A stretch of 64,000 bases of DNA from Candidatus Omnitrophota bacterium (GCA_043798375.1 JAZDOS010000029.1:62955-126954); one strand, 5' to 3'. Shown: positions 5,019-22,157, counted from the first letter of the stretch. The notes: a model not told the origin generated them from the letters alone. Translations and numbers: made by a program.

Positions 5019-5492
5019 ATGCCGGTATTTATGACTGCGGGCTGCGCGACGGCGCCGGCCGCTACTCCTCCGATAGGGTCGCCCATCGCAACGCATGGAG
5101 CCGTAATTTATCAAAAAGAATATTTTACCTGGCCTGTTAAAGGCTGCATCCTGGCGCCATACGGCTCGAAAGTAGATAACATTATCAATAAAGGCGTAGA
5201 TATAAGGGTACCTGAAGGGTCAAGCGTCAAGGCGGCGAGGTCCGGCAGGGTTGTTTATTGCGATTCTTATTTGAAAGGGTTCGGCAAAACGATTATAATA
5301 GACCACGGCGAAGGATTGCAAACCGTGTATTCATACAACTCGGACATCCTGGTAAGTGTAGGCGCAAACGTGTCTAAGTATGAGACGATAGCAAAGGCGG
5401 GGAGGACCGGCAGGGCAAAAGAGTCGAGCCTGCATTTTGAGGTTCGTAAAAACGGCGAGCCGCAGAATCCGCTGTATTATTTACCCCGTTAG
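5019..5492 (+). CDS. M23-family metallopeptidase lipoprotein (LytM/NlpD-like)
   Basis: Start moved to ATG 5019 because the ORF-track start overlaps the tRNA. Lipobox LLLLMPVFMTAGC. M23 motifs GVDIRVPEGSSV..HFEVRKNGEPQNP. Confidence 0.75.
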   Translation: MPVFMTAGCATAPAATPPIGSPIATHGAVIYQKEYFTWPVKGCILAPYGSKVDNIINKGVDIRVPEGSSVKAARSGRVVYCDSYLKGFGKTIIIDHGEGLQTVYSYNSDILVSVGANVSKYETIAKAGRTGRAKESSLHFEVRKNGEPQNPLYYLPR

Positions 5493-5603
5493 AAAGGAAC
5501 TTTGTAACGGGACGGGGATGATAAAAATAAATAACATTTATTTAGAAAGGGTGGGCTTAAAGCCCCATCCTTTCTAACGGGGTTTACCGCGTTGAGGGAA
5601 ATT

Positions 5604-7238
5604 ATGTTCAGCGAACCGGTAGTGGGAGAAAAGTTTTTCGGAAGAGAAGAGGTGCTCGAGCTTTTAAATAAGCGCGTATCGGCCCTTAAAGAAGGCTACA
5701 GGCAGAACGTCGCCCTGACAGGCCCGAGCCTTGCCGGAAAATCCTCGATAATACTTCACTTCCTGCGCACAGTCAAGGAAGAGGGGTTCATACCTATATA
5801 TGTCGAGGTGGTTAAGGAAGATTTCAGGTCGTTTGCCGATAAGTTCATCGCAACCCTTTTATACAATGCGCTCCACAGGCTGGGCGAGGAATCGGATGTC
5901 GACATGGAGATGCTTATCGACAAGGCCGGTAAGGCGCTTCCCAGGACCGCCCATGCGATAAAGCAGGTAAACACGTCGATGGACCGCGGCGAATTCGACG
6001 AGGCATACATCGGGCTTCTCGCCCTGACGTCGGTCCTGAAAAATGAAGCCGGTTACTCATGCGTGGTGATCCTGGACGAATTCGACAACCTAGAGGCGCT
6101 CGGCATAAAGAACCCGTTCCTGGGCTTCGGCAAAGTGATAATGGTCCAGAAGGATACGATGTATATCGTTTCCAGCTCCAGGAACGAGGCGATAAAGAAG
6201 ATAATATCGGAAAAGCTCTCGCTCCTGTTCGGCAATTTCGAGGTGGTAAAGGTCCGGAACTTCGATCTTGTCACATCGCGCCAATTTCTGGATATACGAT
6301 TTGCCGGCTTCGAGATCAACGATTCCCTGAAGAAATTCTTCATAGCTTTTACCGACGGCAATCCTTTCTACCTCGACAGATTATCGGCCCGGGCCAGGGA
6401 GTTCTCCGCCGAAAAATTGTCGGGTGTCATTGAACCGGATTCTGTCGCGGATGCCATGCTGGAGCTAGTCTATAACGCGAACGGCCTTATCCATCAATAT
6501 CTGTTTAATTATCTATTAAGCCTGCTGGACACAAAAACAAGGGACAGCCACATGTCCATTCTCATATCTATAGCTGACGGCCGGAACAAGCGCACCGATA
6601 TAGCGCGCGCGATAAAGACTAAACAGGCTGAGGTTGCCAAGGGCCTTTTACGCCTTTCGGAGCTGGGGCTCGTATCGAAGAACGGCGTATTCTACGAGAT
6701 CGACGATGTGATGCTGGCGTTCTGGCTTAAACATGTCTACGAGCGAAGAAGGCAGCTTCTTGTTGACGGGACATTCGACAGATTGGCCTTATTCTCCCGG
6801 GAGATAAGGTCTTACATCTCGGCGTTCGAGGAAGAGTCCCGCGAAAAGACTCCCTCGGCAAGGCTCGCCGAGCTTTTCAACGCGTTCTCCAATGAACTCG
6901 TTTCCATCGAGTCAAAGAATATCAGGCTTCCTCACTTCACAAAGGTAGAGGTGAAGAATACGGCCGATTCGAAGGAGATCCTGGCGGCGTCATTCCGCGG
7001 CAATTTTTGGATAGTTCAGGCTTTTGAATCCTACGCGGCCGAAAGCGACGTCATAGGTTATATTAAGAATACAAAGGGGATAGTCGAAAAAATATCCAAT
7101 AAAATCATAGTGCCGTTAAGGGGCATCGATGAAAACGCGAAACTGCTCGCCAAGGAACTCAAGATATCGATCTGGGACGCCTCTACGGTAAACAGGCTGT
7201 TCGGTTACTATAACAAGAAAAGGATGATCACCCTTTAG
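5604..7238 (+). CDS. AAA+ ATPase of the archaeal-ATPase/DUF234 family
   Basis: N-terminal FFGREEVLELL..VALTGPSLAGKSS (Walker A) and DEFD (Walker B), typical of PF01637. The ORF track starts at a TTG. The first ATG (5604) is used here. Confidence 0.6.
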   Translation: MFSEPVVGEKFFGREEVLELLNKRVSALKEGYRQNVALTGPSLAGKSSIILHFLRTVKEEGFIPIYVEVVKEDFRSFADKFIATLLYNALHRLGEESDVDMEMLIDKAGKALPRTAHAIKQVNTSMDRGEFDEAYIGLLALTSVLKNEAGYSCVVILDEFDNLEALGIKNPFLGFGKVIMVQKDTMYIVSSSRNEAIKKIISEKLSLLFGNFEVVKVRNFDLVTSRQFLDIRFAGFEINDSLKKFFIAFTDGNPFYLDRLSARAREFSAEKLSGVIEPDSVADAMLELVYNANGLIHQYLFNYLLSLLDTKTRDSHMSILISIADGRNKRTDIARAIKTKQAEVAKGLLRLSELGLVSKNGVFYEIDDVMLAFWLKHVYERRRQLLVDGTFDRLALFSREIRSYISAFEEESREKTPSARLAELFNAFSNELVSIESKNIRLPHFTKVEVKNTADSKEILAASFRGNFWIVQAFESYAAESDVIGYIKNTKGIVEKISNKIIVPLRGIDENAKLLAKELKISIWDASTVNRLFGYYNKKRMITL

Positions 7239-7721
7239 ATGAAGATCCTGGTCCTGTCAGATACCCATATCCCCAGGTCCTCGCACGACCTCCCTATGGA
7301 GGTCTACGACGCGATCGAGGGCGTCGACATGATTTTACATGCCGGCGATTTTGTGGAAAAAGATGTGCTCGATAAACTGAAAGCCTTAAGGCCCACAACC
7401 GCTGTTTACGGAAATATGGACGCAAACACGCTCCACAACGTCCTCAACCAGAAAGAGGTCGTCGAAGTCGGCAACTTCAAGATCGGCCTCATACACGGCT
7501 ATGGCGCCTCGGCGAACATTATCGATACCGTAAAATCCGAGTTTAAAGACGTGGATGCGATAATCTTCGGCCATTCGCACGCGCCGGTCAACATTAAGAA
7601 AGACGGCATCCTGTTTTTTAACCCGGGCAGCCCGACCGATAAGGTATTCGCCAATGCCAATTCTTACGGTATTTTAGAGGTTACGGACAAAAAGATAGAA
7701 GGGCATATAATAACTATATGA
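7239..7721 (+). CDS. Metallophosphoesterase, YfcE/MJ0936 family
   Basis: MKILVLSDTHIP..HAGDF..GNMD..GHSH is the calcineurin-like phosphoesterase motif set. 160 aa. Confidence 0.8.
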   Translation: MKILVLSDTHIPRSSHDLPMEVYDAIEGVDMILHAGDFVEKDVLDKLKALRPTTAVYGNMDANTLHNVLNQKEVVEVGNFKIGLIHGYGASANIIDTVKSEFKDVDAIIFGHSHAPVNIKKDGILFFNPGSPTDKVFANANSYGILEVTDKKIEGHIITI

Positions 7722-8542
7722 GAGATATACCGGTAATCAAAGTCGAGGGCCTTACGCTCCCTGAAGCATGGGAGAAGGCGGTCCTTGCCGTCTGGAAGGA
7801 CGGACTGGACATAAAAACGGAATACGACAAGAAAGGCGATCCGTTAAGTAAGGATTGCACGATGATCATGGTCGTTAACGAGCCGATGAAAGAGCCGCGC
7901 ATACACAGGGCTTTCCCCGGCGGGCTGGAGGACCTTGAGGTATACCGCCAGGAGGTAGTGCTCGGCATACACGACCATTGGATAAAGCCTGAAGAAGGAA
8001 AATGGACTTATACATATCACCAGAGAATGACAAATTACGATATGGAAGGTGAGTCGATAGACCAGATCGATTATATCATTAAAAAACTTGCCCAAACACC
8101 GTATTCCCGCCGCGCTCAGGGTATAACCTGGAATCCGAAGTCGGACCCTGCTACAGACGACCCTCCGTGCCTGCAGAGGATCTGGGCCAGGCTCGTAAGG
8201 CTGGGTGAAGACAAATACACGCTCGACATAAATACGCACTGGCGTTCGCGCGACGCTTACAAAGCGAGTTTTATGAACATATTCGCGCTTACAGACCTGC
8301 AGAGGGTCATGGCGGAAAAAATTTCAAAGCTTGGCGGCTTCGAGGTTGCGGTAGGCCGTTACGTCGATATCAGCGATAGCTTCCATATATACGGCAGCTA
8401 TCACGAGGAGTTCAAAAATTTCCTGAAGATGGTAAAGGACAGGTCATTCGAGGAGAGGACATGGCCTACGGATTTTGCCAGGCCGTTCTTCGAAGACGCG
8501 ATATTAAAGATACAAAATGAACGAGGCAATAATGTCAAATGA
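7718..8542 (+). CDS. Thymidylate-synthase-family protein (divergent ThyA-like, dUMP-directed)
   Basis: IDQIDYIIKKLAQTPYSRRAQGITWNP aligns to the ThyA DQI..SRR..SAWN motif. DPPCLQRIW aligns to the P-C catalytic Cys. HWRSRDAYKASFMNIFAL aligns to YQRSCD..PFNIASYAL with the Asn retained. DSFHIYGSYH aligns to GDxHxYxNH. Confidence 0.6.
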   Translation: MRDIPVIKVEGLTLPEAWEKAVLAVWKDGLDIKTEYDKKGDPLSKDCTMIMVVNEPMKEPRIHRAFPGGLEDLEVYRQEVVLGIHDHWIKPEEGKWTYTYHQRMTNYDMEGESIDQIDYIIKKLAQTPYSRRAQGITWNPKSDPATDDPPCLQRIWARLVRLGEDKYTLDINTHWRSRDAYKASFMNIFALTDLQRVMAEKISKLGGFEVAVGRYVDISDSFHIYGSYHEEFKNFLKMVKDRSFEERTWPTDFARPFFEDAILKIQNERGNNVK

Positions 8543-8591
8543 CAAAATCCAAATGACAAATAAAATTTATGATTCGTTTGACATTTGAGCT

Positions 8592-9131
8592 TTGACATTT
8601 GTCATTGACCAGGAGGTATACGTGAATAAACTATGGGCGCCGTGGAGGAGCAAATACATTTACATGAGAAAGCGCAAGAGTTGCATATTCTGCGGGAGGC
8701 CTCACGGATCCGCCGGCGACAAGAAAAAACATATAATCTGCCGCGCAAAACACTCGTTCGCCATGCTCAACCTCTATCCTTACAATAACGGCCATGTCAT
8801 GGTGGCGCCCTGCAGGCACGTAAAGAGCCTCGAGCAGCTCTCCGACGTCGAACTGCTCGACGTCTTCAGGCTGCTGAACAGGATAAAATCGCTCATCGAT
8901 AAAAAGTTAAAGCCTCACGGCTACAATATAGGGATAAATCTCGGCAGGGTCGGCGGCGCCGGCGTTGCGGGACATGTCCACATCCACATAGTGCCGAGGT
9001 GGGCGGGCGATACGAATTTCATGCCGATCACCGCGGACACGAAGGTCATCTCGGAATCATTGGCGGCGATGTACAAACTGTTGAAGGTAAACCCCGTTAG
9101 AAAGGACGGGCTTTCTAACGGGGTGAAATAA
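8592..9131 (+). CDS. HIT-family protein (Ap4A phosphorylase/GalT-like branch)
   Basis: Histidine triad GHVHIHIVPR and the LWAPWRSKYI motif. GTG 8622 with upstream AGGAGG is an alternative start. Confidence 0.75.
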   Translation: MTFVIDQEVYVNKLWAPWRSKYIYMRKRKSCIFCGRPHGSAGDKKKHIICRAKHSFAMLNLYPYNNGHVMVAPCRHVKSLEQLSDVELLDVFRLLNRIKSLIDKKLKPHGYNIGINLGRVGGAGVAGHVHIHIVPRWAGDTNFMPITADTKVISESLAAMYKLLKVNPVRKDGLSNGVK

Positions 9132-10282
9132 TGCTGAAACGAAAAGACCTGGAAAAAAAAGAGGAGATCCTGGCGCCTTACGCCCAGAAGTCTAAATTCA
9201 CCAAAGGCCGCTGCCACAAAGAAGAGGAGCATGGCTACAGGTCATGCTACCAGCGCGATAAAGACAGGATCATATATTCGACCGCCTTCCGCCGGCTCGA
9301 ATATAAGACCCAGGTTTTCGTCAACCATGAAGGGGATTACTACCGCACGAGGCTCACCCACACGCTGGAAGTTTCGCAGATAGCGAAGTCGATAGCCAGG
9401 GCTCTCGGGCTCAATGAGGACCTGGTAGAAGCGATAAGCCTCGCTCATGACCTCGGCCATACGCCATTCGGCCATTCGGGCGAGGACGCCCTCCATGAGT
9501 TGATGCGGGAACACGACGGGTTCGATCATAATACGCAAGGCTTAAGGGTCGTCGATTTCCTGGAACAGCGCTATCCCGATTTTCCCGGCTTAAACCTGAC
9601 CTATGAGGTCAGGGAAGGTATAATAAAACATTCGACGCCGTTCGACCGGCCGAGGCCGGCGATCCCGTTCGAGTCAAAAGGCTCACCGCTTCTCGAGATC
9701 CAGGCGGTCGATATTGCCGACGAGATAGCTTACGATAACCACGACCTTGATGACGGGATAACGAGCGGCCTTATCAAAGAGGACGATTTAAGGGAAGTGC
9801 GGCTCTGGTCGGAGAGGGAGAGGGAGATAAGGAAGCTCTATCCGCGCATAAAGGGAGAAGTGAAGAAATACCAGATCATCCGGTCTCTCATCAATTGCCA
9901 GGTCACTAACGTGATCAACAATACCGAAGAGAAACTCAAGAGGCTCAAGATCAAGAATACATCTAGTGTAATAAAGACCCCTGAAAGGATCGTAACGGTT
10001 TCAAAGGATATGCAGCTCTTGAGATCGCCGATGAGGGAATTCCTCACGGAAAACCTATATCAGCATTACAGGGTCGTGCGGATGTCGAATAAGGCTTATC
10101 GGTTCATAACGAGCCTCTTCAACATCTACCTGGATAAGCCGGAGCAGCTGCCGCCGACGACCCTGGGCCGCCTCAAAAAAGAAGAGCCTCATCGCGTCAT
10201 CTGTGATTACATCGCCGGCATGACCGACCGCTACGCGCTCGACGAATACAAGAAGTTCTTCGAACCATATGAGAGGGTGTAG
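9131..10282 (+). CDS. dgt: dGTP triphosphohydrolase-like HD-domain protein
   Basis: YQRDKDRIIYSTAFRRLEYKTQVF..RTRLTHTLEVSQIAKS..HDLGHTPFGHSGE is the Dgt-family signature. Confidence 0.85.
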   Translation: MLKRKDLEKKEEILAPYAQKSKFTKGRCHKEEEHGYRSCYQRDKDRIIYSTAFRRLEYKTQVFVNHEGDYYRTRLTHTLEVSQIAKSIARALGLNEDLVEAISLAHDLGHTPFGHSGEDALHELMREHDGFDHNTQGLRVVDFLEQRYPDFPGLNLTYEVREGIIKHSTPFDRPRPAIPFESKGSPLLEIQAVDIADEIAYDNHDLDDGITSGLIKEDDLREVRLWSEREREIRKLYPRIKGEVKKYQIIRSLINCQVTNVINNTEEKLKRLKIKNTSSVIKTPERIVTVSKDMQLLRSPMREFLTENLYQHYRVVRMSNKAYRFITSLFNIYLDKPEQLPPTTLGRLKKEEPHRVICDYIAGMTDRYALDEYKKFFEPYERV

Positions 10283-10291
10283 AGGACGCTA

Positions 10292-10320
10292 TTGACAGAA
10301 ACGACTATTGGCTTTATAAT
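10292..10320 (+). promoter_or_regulatory. Consensus sigma70 promoter
   Basis: TTGACA, exactly 17 nt, TATAAT. Sits 12 nt upstream of ATG 10332, giving a very short leader. Confidence 0.5.
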
Positions 10321-10331
10321 CATAATAAAGC

Positions 10332-11849
10332 ATGGAAAAGACAAGAAATAATAATATCTACCAGAAGGAACTCTTCGACAGGCTGAAAAAGTCGATAAGC
10401 CTGAGGAAGGAAGAAGAATGTATCGGCTGTATGATACATCCGGCCGCCTGGTGGATAATCGAAAAACCAAATCCGAATATACGGGAACTGGAAAAGGTAA
10501 TCTCCGCAATCTGCCCCTATCACAAGAAACATCCTGCAGGCAAACAGAAGATATGCATCAAAGCGATCTTCGAAGTAATAAAAAGGGCCGCCCAAGCCAA
10601 GGCGCTTGCCGGGTTCGATTGCATTGAAGGCCTACACGGCTTCGCGTATCCTATCGCGCAGGGCGACAGGATCTACGGCTATTTAGGGACGTGTTACAGA
10701 AAAAAGGATATCTCGCCGCAGATGCTGGATGTCTTCTCGGCCTTTACCGATACAATCGTCCGCGAAATTCAGAAAGAGCTTGAGCTGTCCAAGCTGTATG
10801 AAACGATAAGGCCCCGCGCCATAGCCCTGTCGACGGTTCACACCGTCCACAGGCTGATAAGCTCGACCCTTGATCTCGCCGAACTCCTGCCCCGCATAGC
10901 AAGGCTGTCATTGCAGATAATGCGCGCCAACAGATGTTCGATAAAGCTTATGGATTCGAAACGCAGGATCCTTCTGCCGAAGGCGACCGTCGACCTGAGA
11001 ACAAAGAATGTCCGGATGAAGAAGGTCAAGGTCGGTAAATACTCTCCGGGTAAAGCGGTAAAGTATGGAAGGCCTGTAAGGGGCCGCGACTTCCTCGCGG
11101 TTCCGCTGATAGATGAAGACGTCATCGGCGTAATCACTATTTACGACAAGATCGATAAAAAACCGTTCAGCTCGTTCGACCAGGAGATAATGTCCACCAT
11201 GGCGGAACAGGCGGTAATAGCAATCAAGAACGCGCAGCTTTACAAGGAGCAGGAAAAACTGATGATGGGAAGCATCAAGTCACTTGCTAAGGTCCTCGAT
11301 ACCCGCGCTCCGGGCACCTATGTCCCCAGGGCGTCTTTTCTTAAGATAGCCCTCGCGATGGGTACTGAGATGCGGCTGGATACCGAAAGCATAAAGAGCC
11401 TCGAATACGCCGCTATACTCCATGACGCGGGCGAGATAATCGTGCCTTATGAAGTCCTGACCAAGCCTTCGAAATTGACAGGTAAGGAATACGAGAAGAT
11501 AAAAGAGCACCCGATGGCCGGTGTAGAACTCATAAAGCATATGAAGGCCCTAAAAACGGTTAACCCCATAATACTGTATCACCATGAAAACTATGATGGG
11601 TCGGGATATCCCAAAGGGCTTAAGAAGGAGCAGATACCGATCGGCGCCAGAATCATGGCCGTTGTGAGCGCGTTCGAAGCCATGACGACAAAGAGGCCAT
11701 ACCGGTCAATAAAGAATATCGATGAAGCCGTGGAAGAGATTAAGAAGAATTCCGGAACGCAGTTCGACCCCAAGGTCGTGAATGTCTTTCTAAAGGTAAT
11801 TTACAGAAAAGACGTGCGGCAGGCGCTGGAGGGGAAGCTCTATGGATAA
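10332..11849 (+). CDS. GAF domain-containing HD-GYP phosphodiesterase (c-di-GMP)
   Basis: C-terminal HD..ILHDAGEI..HHENYDGSGYP (HD-GYP). Central GAF-like region. N-terminal Cys cluster CIGC..CPYH. Confidence 0.75.
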   Translation: MEKTRNNNIYQKELFDRLKKSISLRKEEECIGCMIHPAAWWIIEKPNPNIRELEKVISAICPYHKKHPAGKQKICIKAIFEVIKRAAQAKALAGFDCIEGLHGFAYPIAQGDRIYGYLGTCYRKKDISPQMLDVFSAFTDTIVREIQKELELSKLYETIRPRAIALSTVHTVHRLISSTLDLAELLPRIARLSLQIMRANRCSIKLMDSKRRILLPKATVDLRTKNVRMKKVKVGKYSPGKAVKYGRPVRGRDFLAVPLIDEDVIGVITIYDKIDKKPFSSFDQEIMSTMAEQAVIAIKNAQLYKEQEKLMMGSIKSLAKVLDTRAPGTYVPRASFLKIALAMGTEMRLDTESIKSLEYAAILHDAGEIIVPYEVLTKPSKLTGKEYEKIKEHPMAGVELIKHMKALKTVNPIILYHHENYDGSGYPKGLKKEQIPIGARIMAVVSAFEAMTTKRPYRSIKNIDEAVEEIKKNSGTQFDPKVVNVFLKVIYRKDVRQALEGKLYG

Positions 11850-12108
11850 GCTGTTTAAGTCCGAGATCCATCTTAAGATAATAAAATTTTTCCATGAAAA
11901 CCAGGCTTCGATCGATACACCGCGGGGAGTAGCGACATGGATCGGTGAGGATAGAACCAAAGCGCAAAATGCCCTCGAGGACCTCGTTAAGGCAAAGATA
12001 CTTATAGCCCACCGCGCCACATCGACGACCGGCTACGGCTATACCAGCGACGAGAAGCTCATATCCAGGATAAAAAAATATCTTAAGAAGAGCGAGCCCG
12101 CCTCTTAA
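11842..12108 (+). CDS. Hypothetical small protein
   Basis: 88 aa. Overlaps the upstream gene by 8 nt (operonic). No family recognised. Confidence 0.4.
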   Translation: MDKLFKSEIHLKIIKFFHENQASIDTPRGVATWIGEDRTKAQNALEDLVKAKILIAHRATSTTGYGYTSDEKLISRIKKYLKKSEPAS

Positions 12109-15292: not shown

Positions 15293-15936
15293 TCGCGCTT
15301 ATAGCGATCGCAGGCTTAATCTACATATCTTTCGGCCACGTAGCGGTATATCTATTCGCAAGGGCCAACAACCTCGATATTTCATACGCAAGCCTCGCCA
15401 GGCCCGGGGCGAATTTCGCATTTAAGGATTTCAGGGTTGTGAACAAGGCTTCGGGCCTCGGAATATCCGCCCAAGCGGCCGCGATCAGGCCAAAGCTTAA
15501 AGGCTATGAGTTCAATTTTACGGATGTCCGTTTCCTGCAAAAACACGGCGATGAACTATCCTCATATGAAAATTTGGCCGGGCTTGTGGCGGTCCCGTTC
15601 AAAGGAAGCTGGGTATACAAAGAGATAGCGGGAGAGGCGGCGCCGTCCCGCGACACCCTGGAGGTAAAAAAGCTCGACGCCGTAAGCGATGAGATAAAAT
15701 TACATATCACCGGAAAATTCAACGCCGACAATACCGTGGATACCGATATAAAAATATATTTTGGCCCCGGTATAACAAAGAAGATACCGGAAGAGCTGTC
15801 GAAAGTCATTTTAACAGATGAGGAGGGCAGATGGAAAAGCCTTGCCGTCCATCTATCCGGCAATTACGCCGCGCCCTCCATCCAGGTCTCCGGCAAACTC
15901 TTCCGTCTCAACATCAAATCCATATCAGAAAAATAG
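15253..15936 (+). CDS. Hypothetical membrane-anchored or secreted protein
   Basis: 227 aa with N-terminal TM/signal segment ILLGIIALIAIAGLIYI. Overlaps the helicase 3' end by 40 nt. Confidence 0.45.
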   Translation: MRKMRLQHILLGIIALIAIAGLIYISFGHVAVYLFARANNLDISYASLARPGANFAFKDFRVVNKASGLGISAQAAAIRPKLKGYEFNFTDVRFLQKHGDELSSYENLAGLVAVPFKGSWVYKEIAGEAAPSRDTLEVKKLDAVSDEIKLHITGKFNADNTVDTDIKIYFGPGITKKIPEELSKVILTDEEGRWKSLAVHLSGNYAAPSIQVSGKLFRLNIKSISEK

Positions 15937-15954
15937 TAGTTAAATAAATTTTTC

Positions 15955-16161
15955 GGGTCCTGCCGAAGGAATCTCCGCGAGGGATTGTGCTCAAGCGGGA
16001 CGTTAAAATCGCGAGCGGGCACGGTTTTTTGGCCCTTACCAATACAACCTGCGAGGTTAAACGGTATAAAACTACCGGCAAACCTCGCAGGTTGTATTGG
16101 TGATGCCAAAAAGGGCGAGCAATTTTACCTGGAAAGAAAAGCCGAGGGAGCGGCAGGACCC
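15955..16161. repeat. Nested inverted-repeat element, copy A
   Basis: Shares the core GGGATTGTGCTCAAGCGGGACGTTAAAATCGCGAGCGGGCA..CCAATACAACCTGCGAGGTT-[22 nt]-AACCTCGCAGGTTGTATTGG with 26690-26970. Flanked by GGGTCCTGCCG at 15955-15965 and CGGCAGGACCC at 16151-16161. Confidence 0.6.
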
Positions 16162-16249
16162 GAAAAATTTAATGTGAGTCAATTCGTGATCTTGGAACAA
16201 TAGCACAAAATTGATTTTTGAATCGGCGTATGGTATAATGCCCGATATT

Positions 16250-16756
16250 ATGGAAGAGGAGAAAGGCCAGAAAGAATTATTCGAGTTCGAGAAGCCCAAA
16301 AGGTCGTTCCCGAAGCTCTCAAGCTTTCTTCCGAAGGCTGACTTTGAAAGAAATATCCTTATAACCCTAACGCTTGAGAAGATCATATTCATTTCCATAG
16401 GGTTAATTCTGGCCATGGTCGTCGTTTACGCGCTCGGAGTCGAAGTCGGCAAGGCGAAGACGGCTGTCCAAAAGGCAAGAGGGGCCGGCCAAATCGTTCA
16501 GCAGGCAAGCGTGAATAAAGCGGCGCCTATCACACAGCCGCCGGCGCCTTATATTATCATTGCCGGCGCTTACTCGCGTAAGGAGAACGCCTTATCAGTT
16601 ATGGCGCGTTTAAGGCAGGCGGGTTTTGACGCATATATAGGCAAAAGCGCTCCGCTATTTCAGGTATGGATAGGGGCCAAAACAAGCGCTGACGCGCAAA
16701 GAGAGCTGGCCAGAGTAAAAAAACTATGCAAGGACGCGTATTTAAAAACACGGTAG
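16250..16756 (+). CDS. SPOR-domain protein with one TM helix (peptidoglycan-binding)
   Basis: C-terminal YIIIAGAYSRKENALSVMARLRQAGFDAYIGKS..LFQVWIG is a SPOR domain. TTGATT-17-TATAAT (16211-16239) overlaps the upstream in-frame ATG (16238) and the TTG ORF-track start. ATG 16250 is therefore chosen. Confidence 0.6.
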   Translation: MEEEKGQKELFEFEKPKRSFPKLSSFLPKADFERNILITLTLEKIIFISIGLILAMVVVYALGVEVGKAKTAVQKARGAGQIVQQASVNKAAPITQPPAPYIIIAGAYSRKENALSVMARLRQAGFDAYIGKSAPLFQVWIGAKTSADAQRELARVKKLCKDAYLKTR

Positions 16757-16782
16757 ATGTTTAAACTAAAGGGGGTATTAAG

Positions 16783-17136
16783 ATGTCTCAGCATCCCAGT
16801 CTAAGTTCATCGGATAAGGATAAACAGCATAGATCCGTATTGAAAAGGTATGAAAAGGTTAAGATCTTAAAAGACAAGGAAAAGTGGAAAGACGGCGATT
16901 CCGTATACGGACTACCCAAGGTAAAGATCGTAAGATTCAAGATCAAAAAAGAGAAGGCGGCCGCAGCCGAAGGCGCTGAAAGCCTTGAAGGCGCAGCACC
17001 GGGTACAGAAGCTGCACCGACTCAAGCAGGCGCAGCGAAAACCGCCGGCCCCGCAAAGGGACAGGCCCCGGCAAAGGGAGCCGCGTCGAAGGAAGGCGCT
17101 AAACCCGCCGGTGAAGGAAAGAAAGAAGCGAAATAG
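16783..17136 (+). CDS. Small basic protein (Sbp-like) with Ala/Gly/Lys-rich low-complexity tail
   Basis: MSQHPSLSSS..RSVLKRYEKVKILKDKEKWKDGDSVYGLPKVKIV resembles the small-basic-protein family. The tail is A/G/K/P-rich. Confidence 0.5.
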   Translation: MSQHPSLSSSDKDKQHRSVLKRYEKVKILKDKEKWKDGDSVYGLPKVKIVRFKIKKEKAAAAEGAESLEGAAPGTEAAPTQAGAAKTAGPAKGQAPAKGAASKEGAKPAGEGKKEAK

Positions 17137-18234
17137 TTGAAAACGATCCATGTCCGTCTTAAAGAACGCTCTTACGATATAGTCGTAGGGCTTGATTTAT
17201 TGTCGAAGACAGGCGCTTTATTGCGAAAACTCAAGATAGGTAAAGACGCCGTCGTAATTACGAATAAACCGCTTATGGGCCTCTATAAACGGGACCTGGA
17301 AAGATCCCTCCATAAAAACGGGTTCACCGTCCGATTCGAACTCGTGCCTGATTCCGAAAAGGCGAAATCCTCTAACGTCGCGTTGAAACTGGCCTCCAGG
17401 ATAGCCGCCTACGACAAAAAAAGATCGGTATTTATTATCGCTTTCGGCGGCGGCGTCATCGGAGACCTGGCGGGATTCGTCGCGGCGATATACAAGAGAG
17501 GCGTGCCGTATGTCCAGATCCCTACCACGCTTTTAGCGCAGGTCGATTCCGCGATAGGCGGCAAGACTGCCATAGACCTCAATATAGCGAAGAACCTTGT
17601 CGGCGCCTTTTATCAGCCTCGTATGGTAATATCGGACATATCGCTCTTGGAGACGCTGCCCGCCCGGCAGATAAGAAACGGCCTTGCGGAGGTGATAAAA
17701 TACGGCGTGATCAAAGACAGGCGGCTGTTCGCTTTCCTGGAAAAAAAGTATTCCGACATTTTGAAGTATGACAGGGGCAGCCTGGAGTATGCTGTTTTGA
17801 GATCGAGCCGCATCAAGGCGAAGGTCGTCGAACGCGACGAGCTTGATAGAACCGGATTGAGGGTTATATTGAACTATGGCCATACGGTGGGACACGCTAT
17901 CGAGAGCGCATCCTCATACTCGTCCAGATATAACCACGGCGAGTCAGTGGCGATCGGTATGGCTGTGGCCTGCGACATCGCGTTAAAACTTAAATTGACG
18001 AACCCCGCGGTTTCGGAAAGGATCAAGGCGCTAATCAAAAAAATCGGCCTTCCCGCGAAAATCACGGGCCTTAGCCTCTCGAAGATACGCGGATCTTTAG
18101 CGCATGATAAGAAGTTTATGCGGGGGAAAAACAGGTTTGTTCTGCCCGTCTCGGTCGGAGAGGTAAGGGTCTTCGACGGAGTGCCTGACAAAATAATAAC
18201 CGAAGCCATTAAAAAGAATTTGAAAAACGGCTGA
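17137..18234 (+). CDS. aroB: 3-dehydroquinate synthase
   Basis: FGGGVIGDLAGFVAA..VPYVQIPTTLLAQVDSAIGGKTAIDL..NYGHTVGHAIE. The TTG start is taken from the ORF track. Confidence 0.85.
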   Translation: MKTIHVRLKERSYDIVVGLDLLSKTGALLRKLKIGKDAVVITNKPLMGLYKRDLERSLHKNGFTVRFELVPDSEKAKSSNVALKLASRIAAYDKKRSVFIIAFGGGVIGDLAGFVAAIYKRGVPYVQIPTTLLAQVDSAIGGKTAIDLNIAKNLVGAFYQPRMVISDISLLETLPARQIRNGLAEVIKYGVIKDRRLFAFLEKKYSDILKYDRGSLEYAVLRSSRIKAKVVERDELDRTGLRVILNYGHTVGHAIESASSYSSRYNHGESVAIGMAVACDIALKLKLTNPAVSERIKALIKKIGLPAKITGLSLSKIRGSLAHDKKFMRGKNRFVLPVSVGEVRVFDGVPDKIITEAIKKNLKNG

Positions 18235-18246
18235 ATAGGAGAAAAA

Positions 18247-18708
18247 ATGCGCCACTCTTTACGTAACTTCAGGAATGAGGACGCCTTTGGCGTAAAAGAT
18301 CTGATACTTGGAATTCTCGCGAAAGAGTATCCTTTCGACAAGAGCGCATACTCTGACAGCGACCTTGATAAGATCGTCGAGACCTACGGCGGCGTCAGGG
18401 ATTCCTTCTTCGTTATCGAAGAAGGCGGTGAGGTCGTAGGAACGGTCGGGGTGAAAGAGGAGTCGAGGGACGAGGCGCTGTTAAGGAGGCTCTTCGTGGA
18501 CTTGAAGCACAGGAAGCACGGTTACGGCACCGAGCTTCTCGATAAAGCCGTCGCTTTCTGCGGGGAAATGGGCTATAAAAAAATATACTTCAGGTGCACG
18601 GACAGGATGTCCGACGCGATGAAGCTCTGTCTTAAAAAAGGCTTCAAAGAAACGGAGAAGCTCGAAGTAAGCGGCTTCAAAATACATAAACTCGAGTTGG
18701 GGCTTTGA
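18247..18708 (+). CDS. GNAT-family N-acetyltransferase
   Basis: LRRLFVDLKHRKHGYGTELLDKAV is the acetyl-CoA-binding motif A (R/Q-x-x-G-x-G/A). Confidence 0.75.
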   Translation: MRHSLRNFRNEDAFGVKDLILGILAKEYPFDKSAYSDSDLDKIVETYGGVRDSFFVIEEGGEVVGTVGVKEESRDEALLRRLFVDLKHRKHGYGTELLDKAVAFCGEMGYKKIYFRCTDRMSDAMKLCLKKGFKETEKLEVSGFKIHKLELGL

Positions 18709-19100
18709 TGAAAGTTCACGAAACCGAGATAAGGGTAAGATACCAGGAGACGGACAACATGGGTGTGGTCTATTACGCGAATTACTTAACCTGGTTCGAG
18801 GTGGCAAGGACCGAATATTTCCGGGCAGCGGGGCTGGTCTACCGCAAGCTTGAAGAGAAGGGGATATATCTTATGGTGGCGAGCGCTTCCTGCCAGTACA
18901 GGTCTCCTGCCAGGTATGACGATGTCGTTAAGCTCCATGCGTGGGTGCCGGAACTCAAAAATTCAAGCCTTAAATTCGCGTATAAATTATTTGTCGGCGA
19001 AAAAGTGATCGCGCAGGGAGAGTCTGTTCACGTATTTACCGACGCTCGGGGCAAGCCGACAAGAATACCCGAAGAAGTAAGAAGATTATTCCATCCCTAA
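18705..19100 (+). CDS. Acyl-CoA thioesterase, YbgC/4HBT hot-dog family
   Basis: ETEIRVRYQETDNMGVVYYANYLTWFEVARTEYF is the YbgC signature. Confidence 0.8.
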   Translation: MMKVHETEIRVRYQETDNMGVVYYANYLTWFEVARTEYFRAAGLVYRKLEEKGIYLMVASASCQYRSPARYDDVVKLHAWVPELKNSSLKFAYKLFVGEKVIAQGESVHVFTDARGKPTRIPEEVRRLFHP

Positions 19101-19559
19101 CGTAACTACAGAATCTTTTTTCTGTAAAACAACCTTGTCCTTGTCTATCTTAATCACCTTTGCGCCGCTGATAATATCTCCGGTCGCCACAATAACGTTA
19201 TTGACAATCGCCCTGGGCCCATCCACCAGCTCCATTACGCCGTTCAGGACAAAATCCGGAAACTTCCCCTTTGCCGGTTTCGACCTGGACGCGCCGGTAT
19301 AGGTTTCGGCAACCGGAAAATCATCCGTACCCATATCGATCGTCGATATGGGTTTATAGATGGCTTCGGTGACAGCCGAGCCTGCTTTCGCCCCGCTTTT
19401 GCCTGGCGAAAACGAAACCTGTTTTATTGTAACGCCCAACAGCATAATGAAAATTATCAAAAGCACGACGGGCGCGAAATTCTTTTTATTCGGGCTTTGT
19501 CCCGTCCCGGGCCCTTTGAGTCCTTGAGCTTTCTTCAGCGCTTCCTGCACTATGCTCAT
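19086..19559 (-). CDS. Membrane-anchored protein, possible ExeB/GspB-like partner of ExeA
   Basis: 157 aa with N-terminal TM segment APVVLLIIFIMLLGV. Lies directly downstream of the exeA-like gene on the minus strand. Confidence 0.4.
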   Translation of the reverse strand: MSIVQEALKKAQGLKGPGTGQSPNKKNFAPVVLLIIFIMLLGVTIKQVSFSPGKSGAKAGSAVTEAIYKPISTIDMGTDDFPVAETYTGASRSKPAKGKFPDFVLNGVMELVDGPRAIVNNVIVATGDIISGAKVIKIDKDKVVLQKKDSVVTLGME

Positions 19560-19760
19560 CCCGTTAGACCTCCTATTTAAGTAATCTAAGCCCCGTCAAT
19601 GGGTCTAACGGGACTCATCCCGTTAGAACCTCAATCTTGAAAATAAAAAAATAACACATTTTTTGCAATAAAACCCGTTTATATAATAAATACATATTCT
19701 GTTAACCCCGTTAGAAATGTAATTTCTAACGGGGTTAAAGGTTCTAACGGGACTCATGTT
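19559..19760. repeat. Cluster of CCCGTTAGA(A/C)C-type palindromic units
   Basis: CCCGTTAGACC..GGGTCTAACGGG, CCCGTTAGAACC..GGTTCTAACGGG and CCCCGTTAGAAATGTAATTTCTAACGGGG within a 200-bp intergenic region. Confidence 0.6.
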
Positions 19761-20584
19761 CGTATGCCCTCCAGTTCTTTAATACTCTTTTCAACTATGG
19801 GTAGGCCCACGACCCTCGTCTCCATGACATACGCGGCCAGCAATGACTTATCGCAAATCATATTGATAATGCGCGGAATACCGCCGGAAAATTTGTATAT
19901 CGTCTCTATGGCGTCGTCGGGAAAATTTATCTCGCCGTTAGAACCGGCTACGGACAGCCTGTGATATATATATCTTCCGACTTCATCTTTGTCCAGAGGC
20001 GTTATGTGGAACCTCACCGCGATGCGCTGCTTCAGCTGTTTCAGGTTCGGCGAGTCTATTTTTACTTTAAGTTCAGGTTGTCCCACCAGAACTATCTGGA
20101 ACAGCTTCTCCTTGTCGGTCTCGAGATTGGAGAGCATCCGTATCTCTTCCAGTATGGAAGGCTTCAGGTTCTGGGCCTCATCGATTATCAGTATAACATT
20201 GTTTCCCCTTGACAGCTCCTCAAGAAGAAAACCGTTGAGCTGGCGGAGCATCGACCCCTTGTTCTTCCGCTCCACAGAAAGGCCGTAATCCTCTATTATC
20301 GACTGCAGGAGTTGAAGCTCGGGCAGGTTTGAGTTAAATATAAAAGCGCTTTTTGTCCTGGCATCGAGCTGGTTCAGGATCGCCCTGCAAAGGGTTGTTT
20401 TCCCGGCCCCTATCTCGCCGGTTATCTCTAAAAAACCCTTGCGCTCTTTTATGCCGTATAACAGGTGGGAAAACGCTTCCTTATGGACACGGCTCAGGAA
20501 GAGAAAGTTCGGATCGCTTGTGACATTGAACGGCCTTTCCTTAAGGCCAAAGAATTCTCTATACATACCGATTATAGTATACAC
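19754..20584 (-). CDS. ExeA/GspA-like AAA ATPase
   Basis: FFGLKERPFNVTSDPNFLFLSRVHKEAFSHLLYGI..GEIGAGKTTLCRAIL..LIIDEAQNL is the ExeA-family signature. Confidence 0.8.
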   Translation of the reverse strand: MYTIIGMYREFFGLKERPFNVTSDPNFLFLSRVHKEAFSHLLYGIKERKGFLEITGEIGAGKTTLCRAILNQLDARTKSAFIFNSNLPELQLLQSIIEDYGLSVERKNKGSMLRQLNGFLLEELSRGNNVILIIDEAQNLKPSILEEIRMLSNLETDKEKLFQIVLVGQPELKVKIDSPNLKQLKQRIAVRFHITPLDKDEVGRYIYHRLSVAGSNGEINFPDDAIETIYKFSGGIPRIINMICDKSLLAAYVMETRVVGLPIVEKSIKELEGIRT

Positions 20585-20684
20585 GCCTCACCCTCGAGTT
20601 GCAAATAAAATAAAATTATATTAAACTTGCTTTTTTTGAAATCCTTATGTATAATTAACGCATATCTTTAAAGGAGAGAAGCGT

Positions 20685-21053
20685 ATGTGGGACGGAATAA
20701 ACAGAAGAAAGTTTCCCAGGGCCAACTATAAATGCCTGATAAGCATAAAGAAACGCCTTACGGCGAAGACGATATCGACCGAGACGGAGAATATAGGCGC
20801 GGGCGGCATATGCGTCATCATAAAAGAAGACCTGGGCCTCTTTCAGGGCGTTGATGTTGAGCTGTACCTGGATGAGAACCGTCCTCCGATAAAGTCGGGC
20901 GGCACGGTGGTATGGGTGGTGAAGAAGTCTTTTTCCAAGAAGGGGAGCTATTTATACGATACGGGCATCGAATTCATAGACATAAGGCCGGAAGACAGGG
21001 AAAAGATATCCGAGCGGGTTGAAGAGATCCTTAAAAATCAGAGGCGTAAATAG
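20685..21053 (+). CDS. PilZ domain protein (c-di-GMP receptor), single domain
   Basis: RRKFPRANY..(RxxxR) and ENIGAGGICV (D/NxSxxG). 122 aa. Upstream TTGCTT-17-TATAAT and AAAGGAGAG RBS. Confidence 0.75.
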   Translation: MWDGINRRKFPRANYKCLISIKKRLTAKTISTETENIGAGGICVIIKEDLGLFQGVDVELYLDENRPPIKSGGTVVWVVKKSFSKKGSYLYDTGIEFIDIRPEDREKISERVEEILKNQRRK

Positions 21054-21092
21054 AAGAAACGCCTGGAAGAAACGCCTGGAAGAAACGCCTGG
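21054..21092 (+). repeat. 3 x 13-bp perfect tandem repeat GAAGAAACGCCTG
   Basis: Three exact tandem copies lying immediately 5' of a consensus promoter. Confidence 0.7.
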
Positions 21093-21098
21093 CACGGC

Positions 21099-21127
21099 TT
21101 GACAAATCATAGAAATTGTGTTATACT
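21099..21127 (+). promoter_or_regulatory. Sigma70-type promoter
   Basis: TTGACA, 17 nt, TATACT. GGAAGGGAGGTG RBS upstream of ATG 21167. Confidence 0.5.
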
Positions 21128-21166
21128 TGTGTAAATTAAAATCAGGAAGGGAGGTGAAATTAAAAA

Positions 21167-21505
21167 ATGAAAAACTTGTTAAAGGGTATAATTATATGTG
21201 TTGCTATATTGATGGTACTTAATATAGCCAATGCATGCTATGCTCAAGATATGGGTAAGAAGATCTACAGAGGCCTAGCGAATATTATAACGGGATGGAT
21301 AGAGCTTCCAAAGAATATATACGACACCAGCGTGGAAGATAATCCTCTCTCTGGTTTAACGATCGGTTTGGCGAAAGGCGTTGGGATGACGATAGTGCGC
21401 ACAGGCGCAGGAGTGTACGAAACGGTTACATTCCCGTTCCCGATTCCGGAAGGCTACGCACCGGTTCTGGAGCCAGAATTTGTTTTCAATAAGGCTGCGA
21501 AATAA
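21167..21505 (+). CDS. Exosortase-system-associated secreted protein (TIGR04073-like)
   Basis: Signal peptide followed by RGLANIITGWIELPKNIYDTSVEDNPLSGLTIGLAKGVGMTIVRTGAGVYETVTFPFP, which matches my recollection of that family. Confidence 0.55.
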   Translation: MKNLLKGIIICVAILMVLNIANACYAQDMGKKIYRGLANIITGWIELPKNIYDTSVEDNPLSGLTIGLAKGVGMTIVRTGAGVYETVTFPFPIPEGYAPVLEPEFVFNKAAK

Positions 21506-21515
21506 GCCCAATCCT

Positions 21516-21560
21516 GATTTCATGGATAAAAATAAGGGGATAGAAGAGATTTTATCCCCT
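21516..21560 (+). terminator. Rho-independent-terminator-like hairpin
   Basis: ATAAAAATAAGGGGATAGAAGAGATTTTATCCCCTTATTTTTAT: 15-bp perfect stem ATAAAAATAAGGGGA/TCCCCTTATTTTTAT (loop TAGAAGAGATTTTA) with a T-rich 3' side. Confidence 0.6.
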
Positions 21561-21671
21561 TATTTTTATCCGCCTTCGCAAACAGTAAGCAATAGAGCAG
21601 GTGCTTCGGCGGATTATATATCTTGATTAAACGGAATAATCACTATATAATACCAACAAAAAGAGGATAGC

Positions 21672-22022
21672 GTGACAGAGAGAAGAAAGTTTTTACGATT
21701 TGAAACCGCGTTGAACGCGATCTGTGACATGGTAAGTCATAATCACAGGGCTTCATATAAAGTAAGAAACATCTCCAAGGAGGGCGCCCTTCTTCTTGTA
21801 GATAAGAAACTCAGGGAAGGGGCCGAAATAAAGCTTTCGATGGACGTGCCCGGAGATAACGTTCCGATATTCGCGTCATGCGAAGTCGCATGGCAGAAAG
21901 GCGGCGAGAATTGCAATCTGTATGAAACCGGCGTCAGGTTCAAGAGTATCGACGGCCCGGACAGGGGAAGGCTCCTCGAATATATTTATCTGCAGTGGTT
22001 AAAATTACTGGATAAAAAATAA
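21672..22022 (+). CDS. PilZ domain protein, single domain
   Basis: GTG start. RRKFLRFE.. and RNISKEGALL motifs. 116 aa. Confidence 0.7.
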   Translation: MTERRKFLRFETALNAICDMVSHNHRASYKVRNISKEGALLLVDKKLREGAEIKLSMDVPGDNVPIFASCEVAWQKGGENCNLYETGVRFKSIDGPDRGRLLEYIYLQWLKLLDKK

Positions 22023-22157
22023 TATGAGCCCCGTTAGAAAATTTTCCTAATTCTACGTTATTTAATGCCACCGTATACATGAATTCTTTACTTAAATCAT
22101 GATTTAGAAATTTGTAAATTTTCTAACGGGGTGAGCGAAGAAAAGAGGCAAGATTAA

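Follow-up and report, generated by a model that had tools for sequence, protein, structure and literature searches.

The closest described counterparts of the DNA elements considered here are the bacterial MITEs, such as Correia/NEMIS of Neisseria, Nezha, and MITEAba12, which are short non-coding sequences with terminal inverted repeats and a target-site duplication, occurring as many dispersed and mostly intergenic copies that show insertion polymorphism between relatives and occasionally affect neighboring genes. Their lower size limit is given in reviews as approximately 50 bp (PMC11602168). REP/REPIN sequences, mobilized by RAYT transposases of the Y1 HUH type, comprise palindromes of 20−40 nt in high copy number, likewise intergenic and with a hairpin unit, the mobilizing gene being mostly unlinked; they lack a target duplication, and they bear a GTAG or CGTC tag (PMC3733652). 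The Rickettsia palindromic elements (RPEs), found in Rickettsia only and measuring approximately 100−150 bp, are mobile palindromes tolerated in frame within protein genes. Additionally, piggyBac elements of eukaryotes and the bacterial IS1380 family resemble the present elements in having a 4-bp duplication (4−5 bp in IS1380) of the T..A type and ends that start with 5'-CC(C) and contain TAGA, a likeness that serves as a lead, the IS1380 family being represented by a single published element with the ends CCTAGA.../...TTTAGG (PMC9535334).

The family described in this article shares the features of MITEs, being short and devoid of coding capacity, bounded by terminal inverted repeats, and flanked by a target-site duplication whose empty site holds a single copy. 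It differs from them in that the mobile unit extends down to 27−32 bp, the arms covary and their pairing ends sharply at 13 bp, a 9-bp core is common to several phyla, and no parent insertion sequence is known.

The window, namely the whole stretch of 64,000 nucleotides from a Candidatus Omnitrophota bacterium that was analyzed (GCA_043798375.1, JAZDOS010000029.1:62955-126954), contains eight copies of the exact 11-mer CCCCGTTAGAA, compared with 0.01 expected from shuffles, and 12 copies of the 9-mer core CCCGTTAGA, compared with 0.49 expected. All 12 core copies fall into six inverted pairs (P1−P6), each in the order plus then minus, which bears out the inverted pairing of CCCCGTTAGAA and TTCTAACGGGG proposed in a preliminary description; the coordinates given there are correct within a few bases. 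The complementary arms comprise 13 nt, compared with the 11 reported initially, and the pairs are flanked by 4-nt direct repeats (in order TTTA, TAAA/TGAA, CTCA, CTCA, TTAA, and TGAG), which are perfect at five pairs and match at three of four positions at the sixth. These repeats, the 13-nt arms, the nesting of P5, and the tandem of P3 and P4 were absent from that description. The copies measure 29−135 nt, leaving no room for an open reading frame, and their hairpins are stable on folding (−25 to −56 kcal/mol, z-scores −3 to −9).

The six elements touch gene boundaries in different ways, and the overlaps with gene ends recognized earlier (the M23 peptidase stop in P1, the C-terminus of the HIT protein in P2, and the ExeA-like stop beside P4) are real. 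P1 (5484-5582, 99 nt; pair coordinates include the terminal bases) has the arms CCCCGTTAGAAAGGA and TCCTTTCTAACGGGG and lies between TTTA repeats at 5480-5483 and 5583-5586; its interior carries a degenerate mini-hairpin on the left side (5485-5511) and a GC hairpin, GGGTGGGC-TTAAA-GCCCCATCC, adjoining the right arm. The stop codon TAG (5490-5492) of the M23 peptidase gene sits within the left arm, from which the last codons and stop (LPR-TAG) are derived with the residues unchanged. P2 (9092-9123, 32 nt) consists of a hairpin only, CCCCGTTAGAAAG-GACGGG-CTTTCTAACGGGG, flanked by TAAA (9088-9091) and TGAA (9124-9127), and represents an in-frame insertion of 36 nt just upstream of the stop/start overlap between the HIT gene and an HD-domain gene, by which the C-terminus of the HIT protein gains the 12 residues NPVRKDGLSNGV. 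P2, and P1 too, are thus comparable to RPEs in being tolerated in frame; in contrast to RPEs, however, copies of this family are mostly intergenic, and coding insertions are confined to last or first codons.

P3 (19559-19613, 55 nt) and P4 (19618-19752, 135 nt, with an AT-rich interior), both with T/A tips, stand in tandem at one target, where P3 is flanked by CTCA at 19555-19558 and 19614-19617, and P4 by the same middle CTCA (19614-19617) and a further copy at 19753-19756. On the minus strand, P3 reads GGAGGTCTAACGGG-ATG and provides a gene of 157 aa (19086-19559, minus) with its Shine-Dalgarno sequence and the A of its start codon, while the TGA stop of the gene for an ExeA-like/XrtA-associated ATPase (19754-19756, minus) lies within the second CTCA of P4. 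Nested in P4 is P5 (19706-19734, 29 nt), a hairpin-only unit whose 13-bp stem is closed by a 3-nt loop, flanked by TTAA at 19702-19705 and 19735-19738. P6 (22029-22131, 103 nt), which also has an AT-rich interior, is flanked by TGAG at 22025-22028 and 22132-22135, and its insertion point is the start codon of the gene lying downstream of the PilZ gene; comparison of the N-termini places the start of this gene, now at 22158, approximately 20 residues later than in a relative.

At every one of these sites, contigs of two close Omnitrophota relatives, at 87−94% protein identity, show a single uninterrupted copy of the 4-mer, which identifies each of the six copies as a recent insertion; the comparison of orthologous loci suggested at the outset gave a positive result for 6/6 copies. 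The empty site of P1 is found at 1636-1660 of contig L121 as TATTATTTA|CCGCGTTAGG, and that of P2 appears in the same contig as a clean 36-nt gap, with the HIT orthologues ending in ...LLKVK and lacking the 12-residue tail. For P3, P4, and P5, contigs L197 and L198 read ATC-A-TGAG-C-ATAGTG, and the two flanking genes overlap there as ATGA, matching a prediction made from the window sequence. The empty site of P6 is AATAATA-TGAG-CGAAGAAAA in L198. The core CCCGTTAGA has zero copies in these empty-site relatives.

Beyond the window, where elements measure 24−198 nt, the same layout recurs as 5'-Y-CCCGTTAGA-NNN ... N'N'N'-TCTAACGGG-R-3', with two 13-bp terminal inverted repeats enclosing as little as a 3-nt loop, for a total of 29 bp, or as much as about 100−190 nt. 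In the arm consensus YCCCGTTAGA+3, positions 2−10 are fixed, an invariance that is partly a product of searching for exact 9-nt matches, whereas positions 1 and 11−13 differ between copies while remaining Watson-Crick complementary within a copy. Pairing is observed at positions 11, 12, and 13 in 96%, 85%, and 72% of elements, respectively, and falls to about 25%, the random level, from position 14 onward, so the modal stem is 13 bp. The covariation score of the arms is 0.258, compared with 0.113 ± 0.010 after shuffling (0/500 reach it), and G-T (G-U) pairs are very scarce at the covarying positions. A perfect in-register 4-nt repeat flanks 82/157 pairs (120 genome loci plus the window), compared with 0−4/157 when the right flank is shifted by 1−2 nt, and the repeat has the form YNNR, its first base being Y and its fourth R in 92/92 distinct validated elements.

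A canonical form of approximately 112 nt, with two internal hairpins kept by covariation, was recovered at 120 metagenome loci, where perfect repeats were found in 88/114 cases, the length peaks at 108−111 nt, and the repeat is orientation-specific (TTTA 74 versus TAAA 2). The terminal base is also correlated with the flanking base that follows it (Fisher p = 4.5e-9); this correlation and the TTTA orientation bias are unexpected under a simple symmetric target duplication. At the lower end of the size range, identical 27-, 29-, 30-, 38-, and 48-mers are found at different sites, and both copies of the 27-, 38-, and 48-mers carry validated repeats at loci of different organisms. For P2, which is 32 bp long, the empty site was verified.

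The family is present in Omnitrophota, Patescibacteria, Planctomycetota, Nitrospirota, and Desulfobacterota, and matches also occur in archaeal-labelled metagenome-assembled genomes and viral contigs, few of the archaeal ones having validated flanking repeats. Copies survive chiefly between genes and at last or first codons: 64% are intergenic and 15% lie in the last 15 codons, compared with 12% and 8% for random placement. Their orientation is neither correlated with the direction of the flanking gene (14 versus 18) nor related to local GC skew (29/55), which is evidence for a mechanism operating at the level of double-stranded DNA.

Taken as a whole, the family probably consists of ultra-small, non-coding, and non-autonomous MITE-like elements that are moved in trans by a putative enzyme with a 4-bp stagger. 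Searches of the window, of orphan arms, and of arm pairs at long range revealed neither a transposase nor an autonomous copy, and no full-length parent with these ends was found in the window or approximately 2.4 Mb of related loci. A survey of about 240 loci (roughly 1.7 Mb) yielded no recurrent neighboring protein family, and a literature search found no description of this hairpin family.

Movement in which a Y1 HUH transposase (RAYT or TnpA) excises and reinserts single-stranded hairpins, after the manner of REP/REPIN or IS200/IS605, is judged unlikely. In an IS200/IS605-type reaction, the right-hand 4−5 nt would belong to the element, which would insert 3' of a matching target, and the 112-nt subfamily, with its fixed, oriented TTTA, does show such a PATE-like trait. 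The hairpin size of the smallest units (27−32 nt), the preservation of arms and internal hairpins by covariation, the many copies per gene in the absence of a linked transposase, and the archaeal and viral matches are likewise compatible with this mechanism. However, at least 19 different 4-mers serve as flanking repeats, the left and right copies being identical, and one 27-mer occurs with TTTA, TTCA, or TGAA, so the repeat is not set by a guide sequence within the element. Insertion of IS200/IS605 elements is specific to one strand at the replication fork, and their ends lack inverted repeats; the termini here are perfect inverted repeats, and orientation is unbiased with respect to GC skew or gene direction. 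The GTAG/CGTC tag is also absent, the tips being CCC/GGG (YCCC.../...GGGR) with GTTAG inside both arms and not one-sided, and scans of the window ORFs gave zero Y1_Tnp matches. The initial comparison with REP/BOX-like or miniature hairpin elements therefore holds in part: these are dispersed small palindromes at gene boundaries, but not REP/BOX in the strict sense, because their direct repeats derive from the target (as the empty sites verify) and differ between identical elements, they lack such a tag, and no RAYT gene was found in the window.

It is very improbable that the hairpin-only units are excision footprints, that is, the two 13-bp ends left by a departing larger cut-and-paste insertion sequence. 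Although the minimum size corresponds sharply to a pair of 13-bp arms with an additional 3 nt or so, and footprints would outnumber a parent that is never seen, the 38-, 48-, and ~112-nt forms possess conserved structured interiors and flanking repeats of their own, identical 27-mers, including the loop, occur in different organisms, the nesting of P5 in P4 and the tandem of P3 and P4 resemble insertions, and no parent element was found in approximately 2.4 Mb of flanking DNA.

Retention for a function in cis, as terminators, mRNA-stabilizing hairpins, or regulator-bound operators, is the least credible explanation, since the stability of the hairpins, their positions at gene boundaries, and the GGAGG placed at the correct spacing from ATG in P3-type copies are outweighed by the absence of all six window copies from the relatives, the target duplications, an arm spacing of 3 to >100 nt, an orientation independent of transcription, the near lack of G-U pairs at covarying positions, and an Rfam search that returned no family matching the elements. 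A role as intrinsic terminators is not supported, as the sequences directly after the right arms (TTTACC, TGAAAT, CTCATG, and TGAGCG) provide no T-tract, and a terminator scan remained at background (26 found versus 24 expected). The operator suggested as a further possibility in the preliminary description fares no better, given the variable spacing, the absence of copies from close relatives, and a core found in many phyla; the window sites occupy the 3' ends of genes and junctions within operons, and are absent from orthologous loci.

For the favored MITE-like elements moved in trans, the target would be cut with a 4-bp stagger by a putative enzyme encoded elsewhere in the genome, which may require a 13-bp duplex with the fixed 9-bp core. 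This duplex could be offered either by two identical ends or by one stem formed from folded arms (hairpin or cruciform), and such folding would explain the mobility of the 27−32-bp units. A DDE synaptic complex of the conventional kind would have difficulty uniting the two ends of a 27−32-bp duplex. A DDE-type transposase is the most likely candidate, and its reaction is possibly piggyBac/IS1380-like, by analogy with tips of the form CCC...GGG, a 4-bp repeat of the T..A type (P5 being flanked by TTAA), and the lineage- and orientation-specific repeat; the repeat here is nevertheless YNNR and not strictly TTAA, and no such transposase is linked to the elements. In the piggyBac reaction, the excised element takes the flanking 4 nt along as 5' overhangs that must pair with the new target; a similar reaction in this family would explain lineage- and orientation-specific repeats. 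A bolder version, considered rather doubtful, is that a 13-bp stem with the core CCCGTTAGA would be the sole need in cis for mobility, with the folded arms serving as closely apposed ends for a prokaryotic transposase and an excised unit of at least 29 bp carrying its flanking 4 nt, so that, as in piggyBac, target choice would be partly inherited by base pairing. Recoded C-termini, replaced stops, and supplied ribosome-binding sites and start codons are regarded as side effects and not as the reason why the elements exist.

If hairpins of 27−32 bp truly move, no MITE described so far is as small, and yet, unlike REPs, they produce a target duplication, posing for transposition biochemistry the question of how an enzyme handles ends separated by only about 3 nt. 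Should the folded-stem version prove true, no smaller transposon would be known, and many uncultivated phyla would share an insertion system that depends on structure and is partly guided by DNA. In lineages that are difficult to investigate, among them Omnitrophota and Patescibacteria, the family additionally marks recent changes of the genome: the six window insertions postdate the split from a relative at ~90% protein identity, and among them they rewrote one stop codon, added 12 residues to one protein, separated the two genes of an ATGA-coupled pair, and displaced one start codon. The sites of such elements are prone to misannotation by gene callers, and the 9-bp core common to several phyla points to a widely transferred putative enzyme.

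With eight occurrences of the 11-mer CCCCGTTAGAA in the window (0.01 expected from shuffling) and 12 of the 9-mer core CCCGTTAGA (expectation 0.49), the sequence agrees with the preliminary description, which had reported dispersed pairs of the 11-mer and its reverse complement and had correctly given both their coordinates and their overlaps with gene ends. All 12 core copies fall into six inverted pairs, each a plus copy followed by a minus copy, and every pair folds into a stable hairpin (-23 to -56 kcal/mol, z-scores -3 to -9). A feature not seen at that stage is the direct repeat that flanks each pair, and such short direct repeats are the signature of insertion with target duplication. 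The elements can be written as Y-CCCGTTAGA...TCTAACGGG-R, where the repeat comprises the four bases outside the tips, that is, outside the outermost arm bases. With tips included, they are P1 (5484-5582, repeats TTTA/TTTA), P2 (9092-9123, TAAA/TGAA), P3 (19559-19613, CTCA/CTCA), P4 (19618-19752, CTCA/CTCA, one copy being common to P3 and P4), P5 (19706-19734, nested in P4, TTAA/TTAA), and P6 (22029-22131, TGAG/TGAG), with the target A|TGAG|C common to P3, P4, and P6.

The window derives from a Candidatus Omnitrophota genome, and its HIT and ExeA-like ATPase proteins are 99-100% identical to proteins encoded by a 148-kb NCBI MAG contig. For comparison, two close relatives supplied three syntenic contigs, L121 and L198 (both assembly GCA_026387115.1) and L197 (a JGI metagenome), whose proteins are 87-94% identical to those of the window and in which the core does not occur. 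At the P1 site, the relative reads TATTA-TTTA-CCGCG and the window TATTA-TTTA-[P1]-TTTA-CCGCG, while at the P2 site, the relative reads GAAGG-TAAA-ATAATG, a clean 36-nt gap corresponding to P2 and a second repeat copy in the window. The P3/P4 site in the relative is ATC-A-TGAG-C-ATAGTG, with an ATGA stop/start overlap, where the minus strand of the window has A-TGAG-[P4 with P5]-TGAG-[P3]-TGAG-C, and AATAATA-TGAG-CGAAG in the relative corresponds to P6 between two TGAG copies. Two predictions made from the window sequence held, namely that the HIT protein without P2 and one repeat would end in ...LKVK, and that the genes on either side of P3 and P4 would overlap as ATGA once both elements were taken out. 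The 12-residue tail that the HIT protein gains from P2 is absent from all 12 aligned orthologues (70-87% identity), most of which end within one residue of ...LLKVK, one having two extra residues. The presence/absence variation at orthologous loci that had been proposed as a check therefore extends to all six copies, and the single-copy empty sites demonstrate that all of them were inserted after the split from these relatives.

The M23 peptidase gene now takes its final codons and stop from an arm of P1, with the protein unchanged (LPR-stop), and the old stop downstream of P1 has since decayed. The original stop region reads CCGCGTTAGG in L121 (1645-1660) and CCGCGTTGAGG in the window (5587-5600), a change that fits a loss of constraint once the element had provided a new stop. 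The Pfam domain of the peptidase covers residues 60-154 of the 5010-5492 translation, and the presence of a tRNA-Gly(CCC) gene at 4930-5003, within the mechanical ORF 4920-5492, places the peptidase start downstream of the tRNA. An ATGA-coupled gene pair has been split by P3 and P4 with both genes intact, the left repeat at the junction retaining the TGA stop and the A tip of P3 together with the right repeat rebuilding the ATG, with GGAGG inside P3 nine nucleotides upstream. P6 struck a start codon, and compared with the relative, the gene start is now displaced inward by about 20 residues.

Outside the window, a T/A-tip subfamily with internal CCTCC (GGAGG on the other strand) repeatedly abuts CAT (ATG on the other strand), providing, like P3, a ribosome-binding site at the correct distance from a start codon rebuilt from tip and repeat. 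Copies are found in L036 (6216-6346), L056 (2497-2543 and 6524-6588), L147 (10175-10215), L169 (4734-4776 and 9059-9116), and L177 (377-417), together with a look-alike in L175 (2709-2758) that lacks a matching flanking repeat.

The window also holds a second dispersed repeat of about 160-230 nt, unrelated to this family, at 15945-16171 and 26763-26977 (about 86% identical over 162 nt), with a partial copy at 61120-61156 and a related piece upstream of an ExeA-like gene in L197 (1082-1242). The arms of its long central hairpin, TTTTGGCCCTTACCAATACAACCTGCGAGGTT..., lie at 16027-16066/16073-16112 and 26816-26855/26860-26899, the first copy being bracketed in addition by a perfect 21-nt inverted repeat (15945-15965/16151-16171), and in Rfam it yielded only sub-threshold chance matches (mir-374). 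Two palindromes likewise unrelated to the family, a near-perfect one at 21524-21571 with 22-nt arms GGATAAAAATAAGGGGATAGAA/... after ORF 21167-21505 and one at 63721-63761 with a perfect 18-nt arm pair, are possibly terminators. Other genes include a MazF/PemK-type toxin gene at 2926-3270 (Pfam E = 2e-35) in the region 2685-3270, with a small ORF (2685-2936) in the antitoxin position upstream, and a cluster of several small PilZ-domain genes (20685-24272) interleaved with two HIT-family genes, an arrangement also present in L198; the PilZ genes at 20685-21053 and 21672-22022 were scanned individually, and three further ones were matched in a batch scan.

A scan of one genome per species with the pattern CCCGTTAGA-N(5-35)-TCTAACGGG returned at least 120 loci. 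The chance background of this gapped 18-nt pattern is estimated at about 27 matches in every 6e10 nt, which amounts to about 270 for the 596-Gb genome collection, and this background is real: among 77 matched pairs on 75 viral contigs, only about 10 are true elements with a flanking repeat, most of the others being ordinary longer, terminator-like palindromes that happen to contain the 9-mers and have no flanking repeat. One such hairpin, AAAAAGG-CCCGTTAGAGCGATGAACTCTAACGGG-CCTTCTTT, recurs in the related contigs L136 (3725-3771), L140, L149, L183, L187, and others with the same 9-mers and without the direct repeat, displaying the chance background of the pattern. The flanking repeat was therefore needed as a criterion, and in the genome set, it is satisfied far beyond chance, with a perfect in-register 4-nt repeat in 82 of 157 pairs among the matches listed and, after a 1-2-nt shift of the right flank, in 0-4 of 157. 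Among the matches listed, 92 distinct validated elements always have Y at repeat position 1 (T 75, C 17) and R at position 4 (A 75, G 17), with C/G tips in 66 and T/A tips in 21, the commonest repeats being TTTA/TAAA, TTCA/TGAA, TCAA/TTGA, and CGAG/CTCG. The validated copies listed derive mainly from Omnitrophota, Patescibacteria, Planctomycetota, Nitrospirota, and Desulfobacterota, and many lie on scaffolds of 50-350 kb; the few matches in archaeal or actinobacterial MAGs are not relied on, since some lack the repeat or lie on short binned contigs. The location at gene ends described for the window holds elsewhere, as 64% of the validated copies among the matches listed are intergenic and 15% lie in the last 15 ORF codons under a crude ORF model, compared with 12% and 8% for random placement. 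On the Omnitrophota contig L044, a 29-nt element copy is followed about 200 nt downstream by an FMN riboswitch (Rfam RF00050, 82.5 bits, 3645-3800).

The ends of the elements are 13-bp inverted repeats with covarying variable positions. Arm positions 2-10 are fixed by the search pattern, while positions 1, 11, 12, and 13 vary among copies and remain complementary within a copy, in 98%, 96%, 85%, and 72% of the listed elements, respectively; from position 14 inward, pairing is at the random 25%, and the modal perfect stem among the matches listed is 13 bp. In the 58 listed elements of at least 33 nt, in which two 17-nt ends cannot overlap, the pairs are AU 37, GC 11, CG 4, and UA 4 at position 11, AU 29, GC 15, and CG 5 at position 12, and UA 21, CG 10, AU 8, and GC 3 at position 13. 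The covariation score of 0.258 (shuffled, 0.113 +/- 0.010) is reached by none of 500 shuffles, and the near absence of G-U pairs points to pairing of DNA rather than RNA.

Element sizes range from 24 to about 190 nt among the matches listed, with a mode of 27 nt without tips, corresponding to a 13-bp stem and a 3-nt loop, and longer elements frequently contain nested copies. Identical elements of 27, 29, 30, 38, and 48 nt occur at different sites; among them, the 27-, 38-, and 48-mers each have validated repeats at both copies, which come from different organisms. The smallest units thus appear to move as such, and units of 27-32 bp have inserted. The identical 27-mer is flanked by TTTA, TTCA, or TGAA, so the sequence of an element does not determine its repeat, and a guide model in which arm positions 11-13 specify the repeat was dropped. 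The P1 site (CCGCGTTAG versus CCCCGTTAG) had suggested that targets resemble the end of the element itself, an idea also rejected, as flanks show no such resemblance, their sole end-like feature being a preference for C/T at the first base past the repeat.

Several copies of 95-145 nt from different phyla share a common interior, and a metagenome scan with the left end of this 112-nt form returned at least 120 loci. Among the matches listed, lengths peak at 108-111 nt and 88 of 114 copies have perfect repeats. The layout comprises an arm, hairpin A, a spacer, hairpin B with a TTYAAW loop, a third degenerate arm copy, a short loop, and the right arm, the right end being itself a hairpin-only unit; both internal hairpins show compensatory changes, one hairpin B column pair being CG in 15 and UA in 15 listed copies. 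In the element's own orientation, the repeat in listed copies is TTTA in 74, TTCA in 5, TTGA in 2, and TAAA in 2, and the tip base matches the first base past the right repeat (C/C 65/72, T/T 10/13; Fisher p = 4.5e-9). The sequence of the repeat therefore depends in part on lineage and orientation, which plain symmetric duplication does not predict. Orientation in the listed copies is related neither to flanking co-directional genes (14 versus 18), nor to local GC skew (29/55 positive, mean absolute skew 0.077), which argues against a strand-specific RNA role and, for skew, against insertion into one replication strand only. The 21-nt left-end pattern coincidentally matches the DNA that encodes ...EKFPLEKAAEAYEQMISGRARFRVVLTMGG at the C-terminus of a conserved protein, and L289 186-206 and L310 389-409 were discarded as such false positives.

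No transposase was detected in the window by Pfam scans, and no full-length autonomous element was found among long-range pairs, orphan arms, or truncated copies. Only three long-range arm pairs had matching repeats (1.7, 2.8, and 4.1 kb), their arms belonging to separate small elements, and the 1.7-kb pair, the sole one whose ORFs were checked, encloses ordinary genes. Orphan arms also neighbor ordinary genes, arms relaxed to one mismatch gave no parent candidate, and 112-nt left ends without a right end were truncated copies or chance matches in a zinc-dependent alcohol dehydrogenase gene. All-against-all ORF clustering over about 240 loci revealed no recurrent neighbor family, only ABC transporters, kinases, sigma factors, secretion ATPases, and similar proteins. 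No Rfam 15 family matched the elements at the gathering score or at E-values up to 5, and full-text literature searches by sequence and topic (MITEs in these phyla), with subscription journals and supplementary tables outside their scope, returned nothing relevant, only primers and an unrelated IS30 end.

The elements are insertions through which one target 4-mer becomes two. The enzyme responsible would act in trans, cutting the target with a 4-bp stagger at r-YNNR-y and reading a 13-bp duplex with a fixed core. Since a duplex of 27-32 bp cannot bend its two ends together, the arms may fold into a cruciform, or a hairpin on each strand, giving two identical stems with the tips side by side, which would explain both the complementarity at sequence-free positions and its end at position 13. 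In the piggyBac reaction, excision leaves the element with its four flanking nucleotides as 5' overhangs, which must base-pair with the next target. A similar requirement here would fit the heritable, oriented repeat, and the CCC...GGG tips and T..A-type 4-bp repeat point toward piggyBac. The ends CCTAGA/TTTAGG of a bacterial IS1380-family element (PMC9535334) point the same way, and by analogy, a piggyBac/IS1380-like reaction may be taken as a lead.

Among the alternatives, the strongest is single-strand transposition by an HUH enzyme, as in REP/RAYT or IS200/IS605 systems, which would account for hairpin structure, small size, and an oriented repeat but does not fit the equality of left and right repeats over many different 4-mers, identical elements with different repeats, perfect terminal inverted repeats, and the missing GTAG tag and replication-strand bias. 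That the smallest units are excision footprints is poorly supported; identical 27-mers recur in different organisms. The operator for an unknown regulator raised in the preliminary description, or any other primary regulatory role, is also poorly supported, given the absence of transcription-strand bias and the recent insertion of the copies; a terminator scan was at background (26 found versus 24 expected), and no T-tract follows the hairpins.

The finding is real, and these elements are mobile DNA. They resemble MITEs and are of REP size, forming a class with target duplication and arm covariation that extends across phyla.
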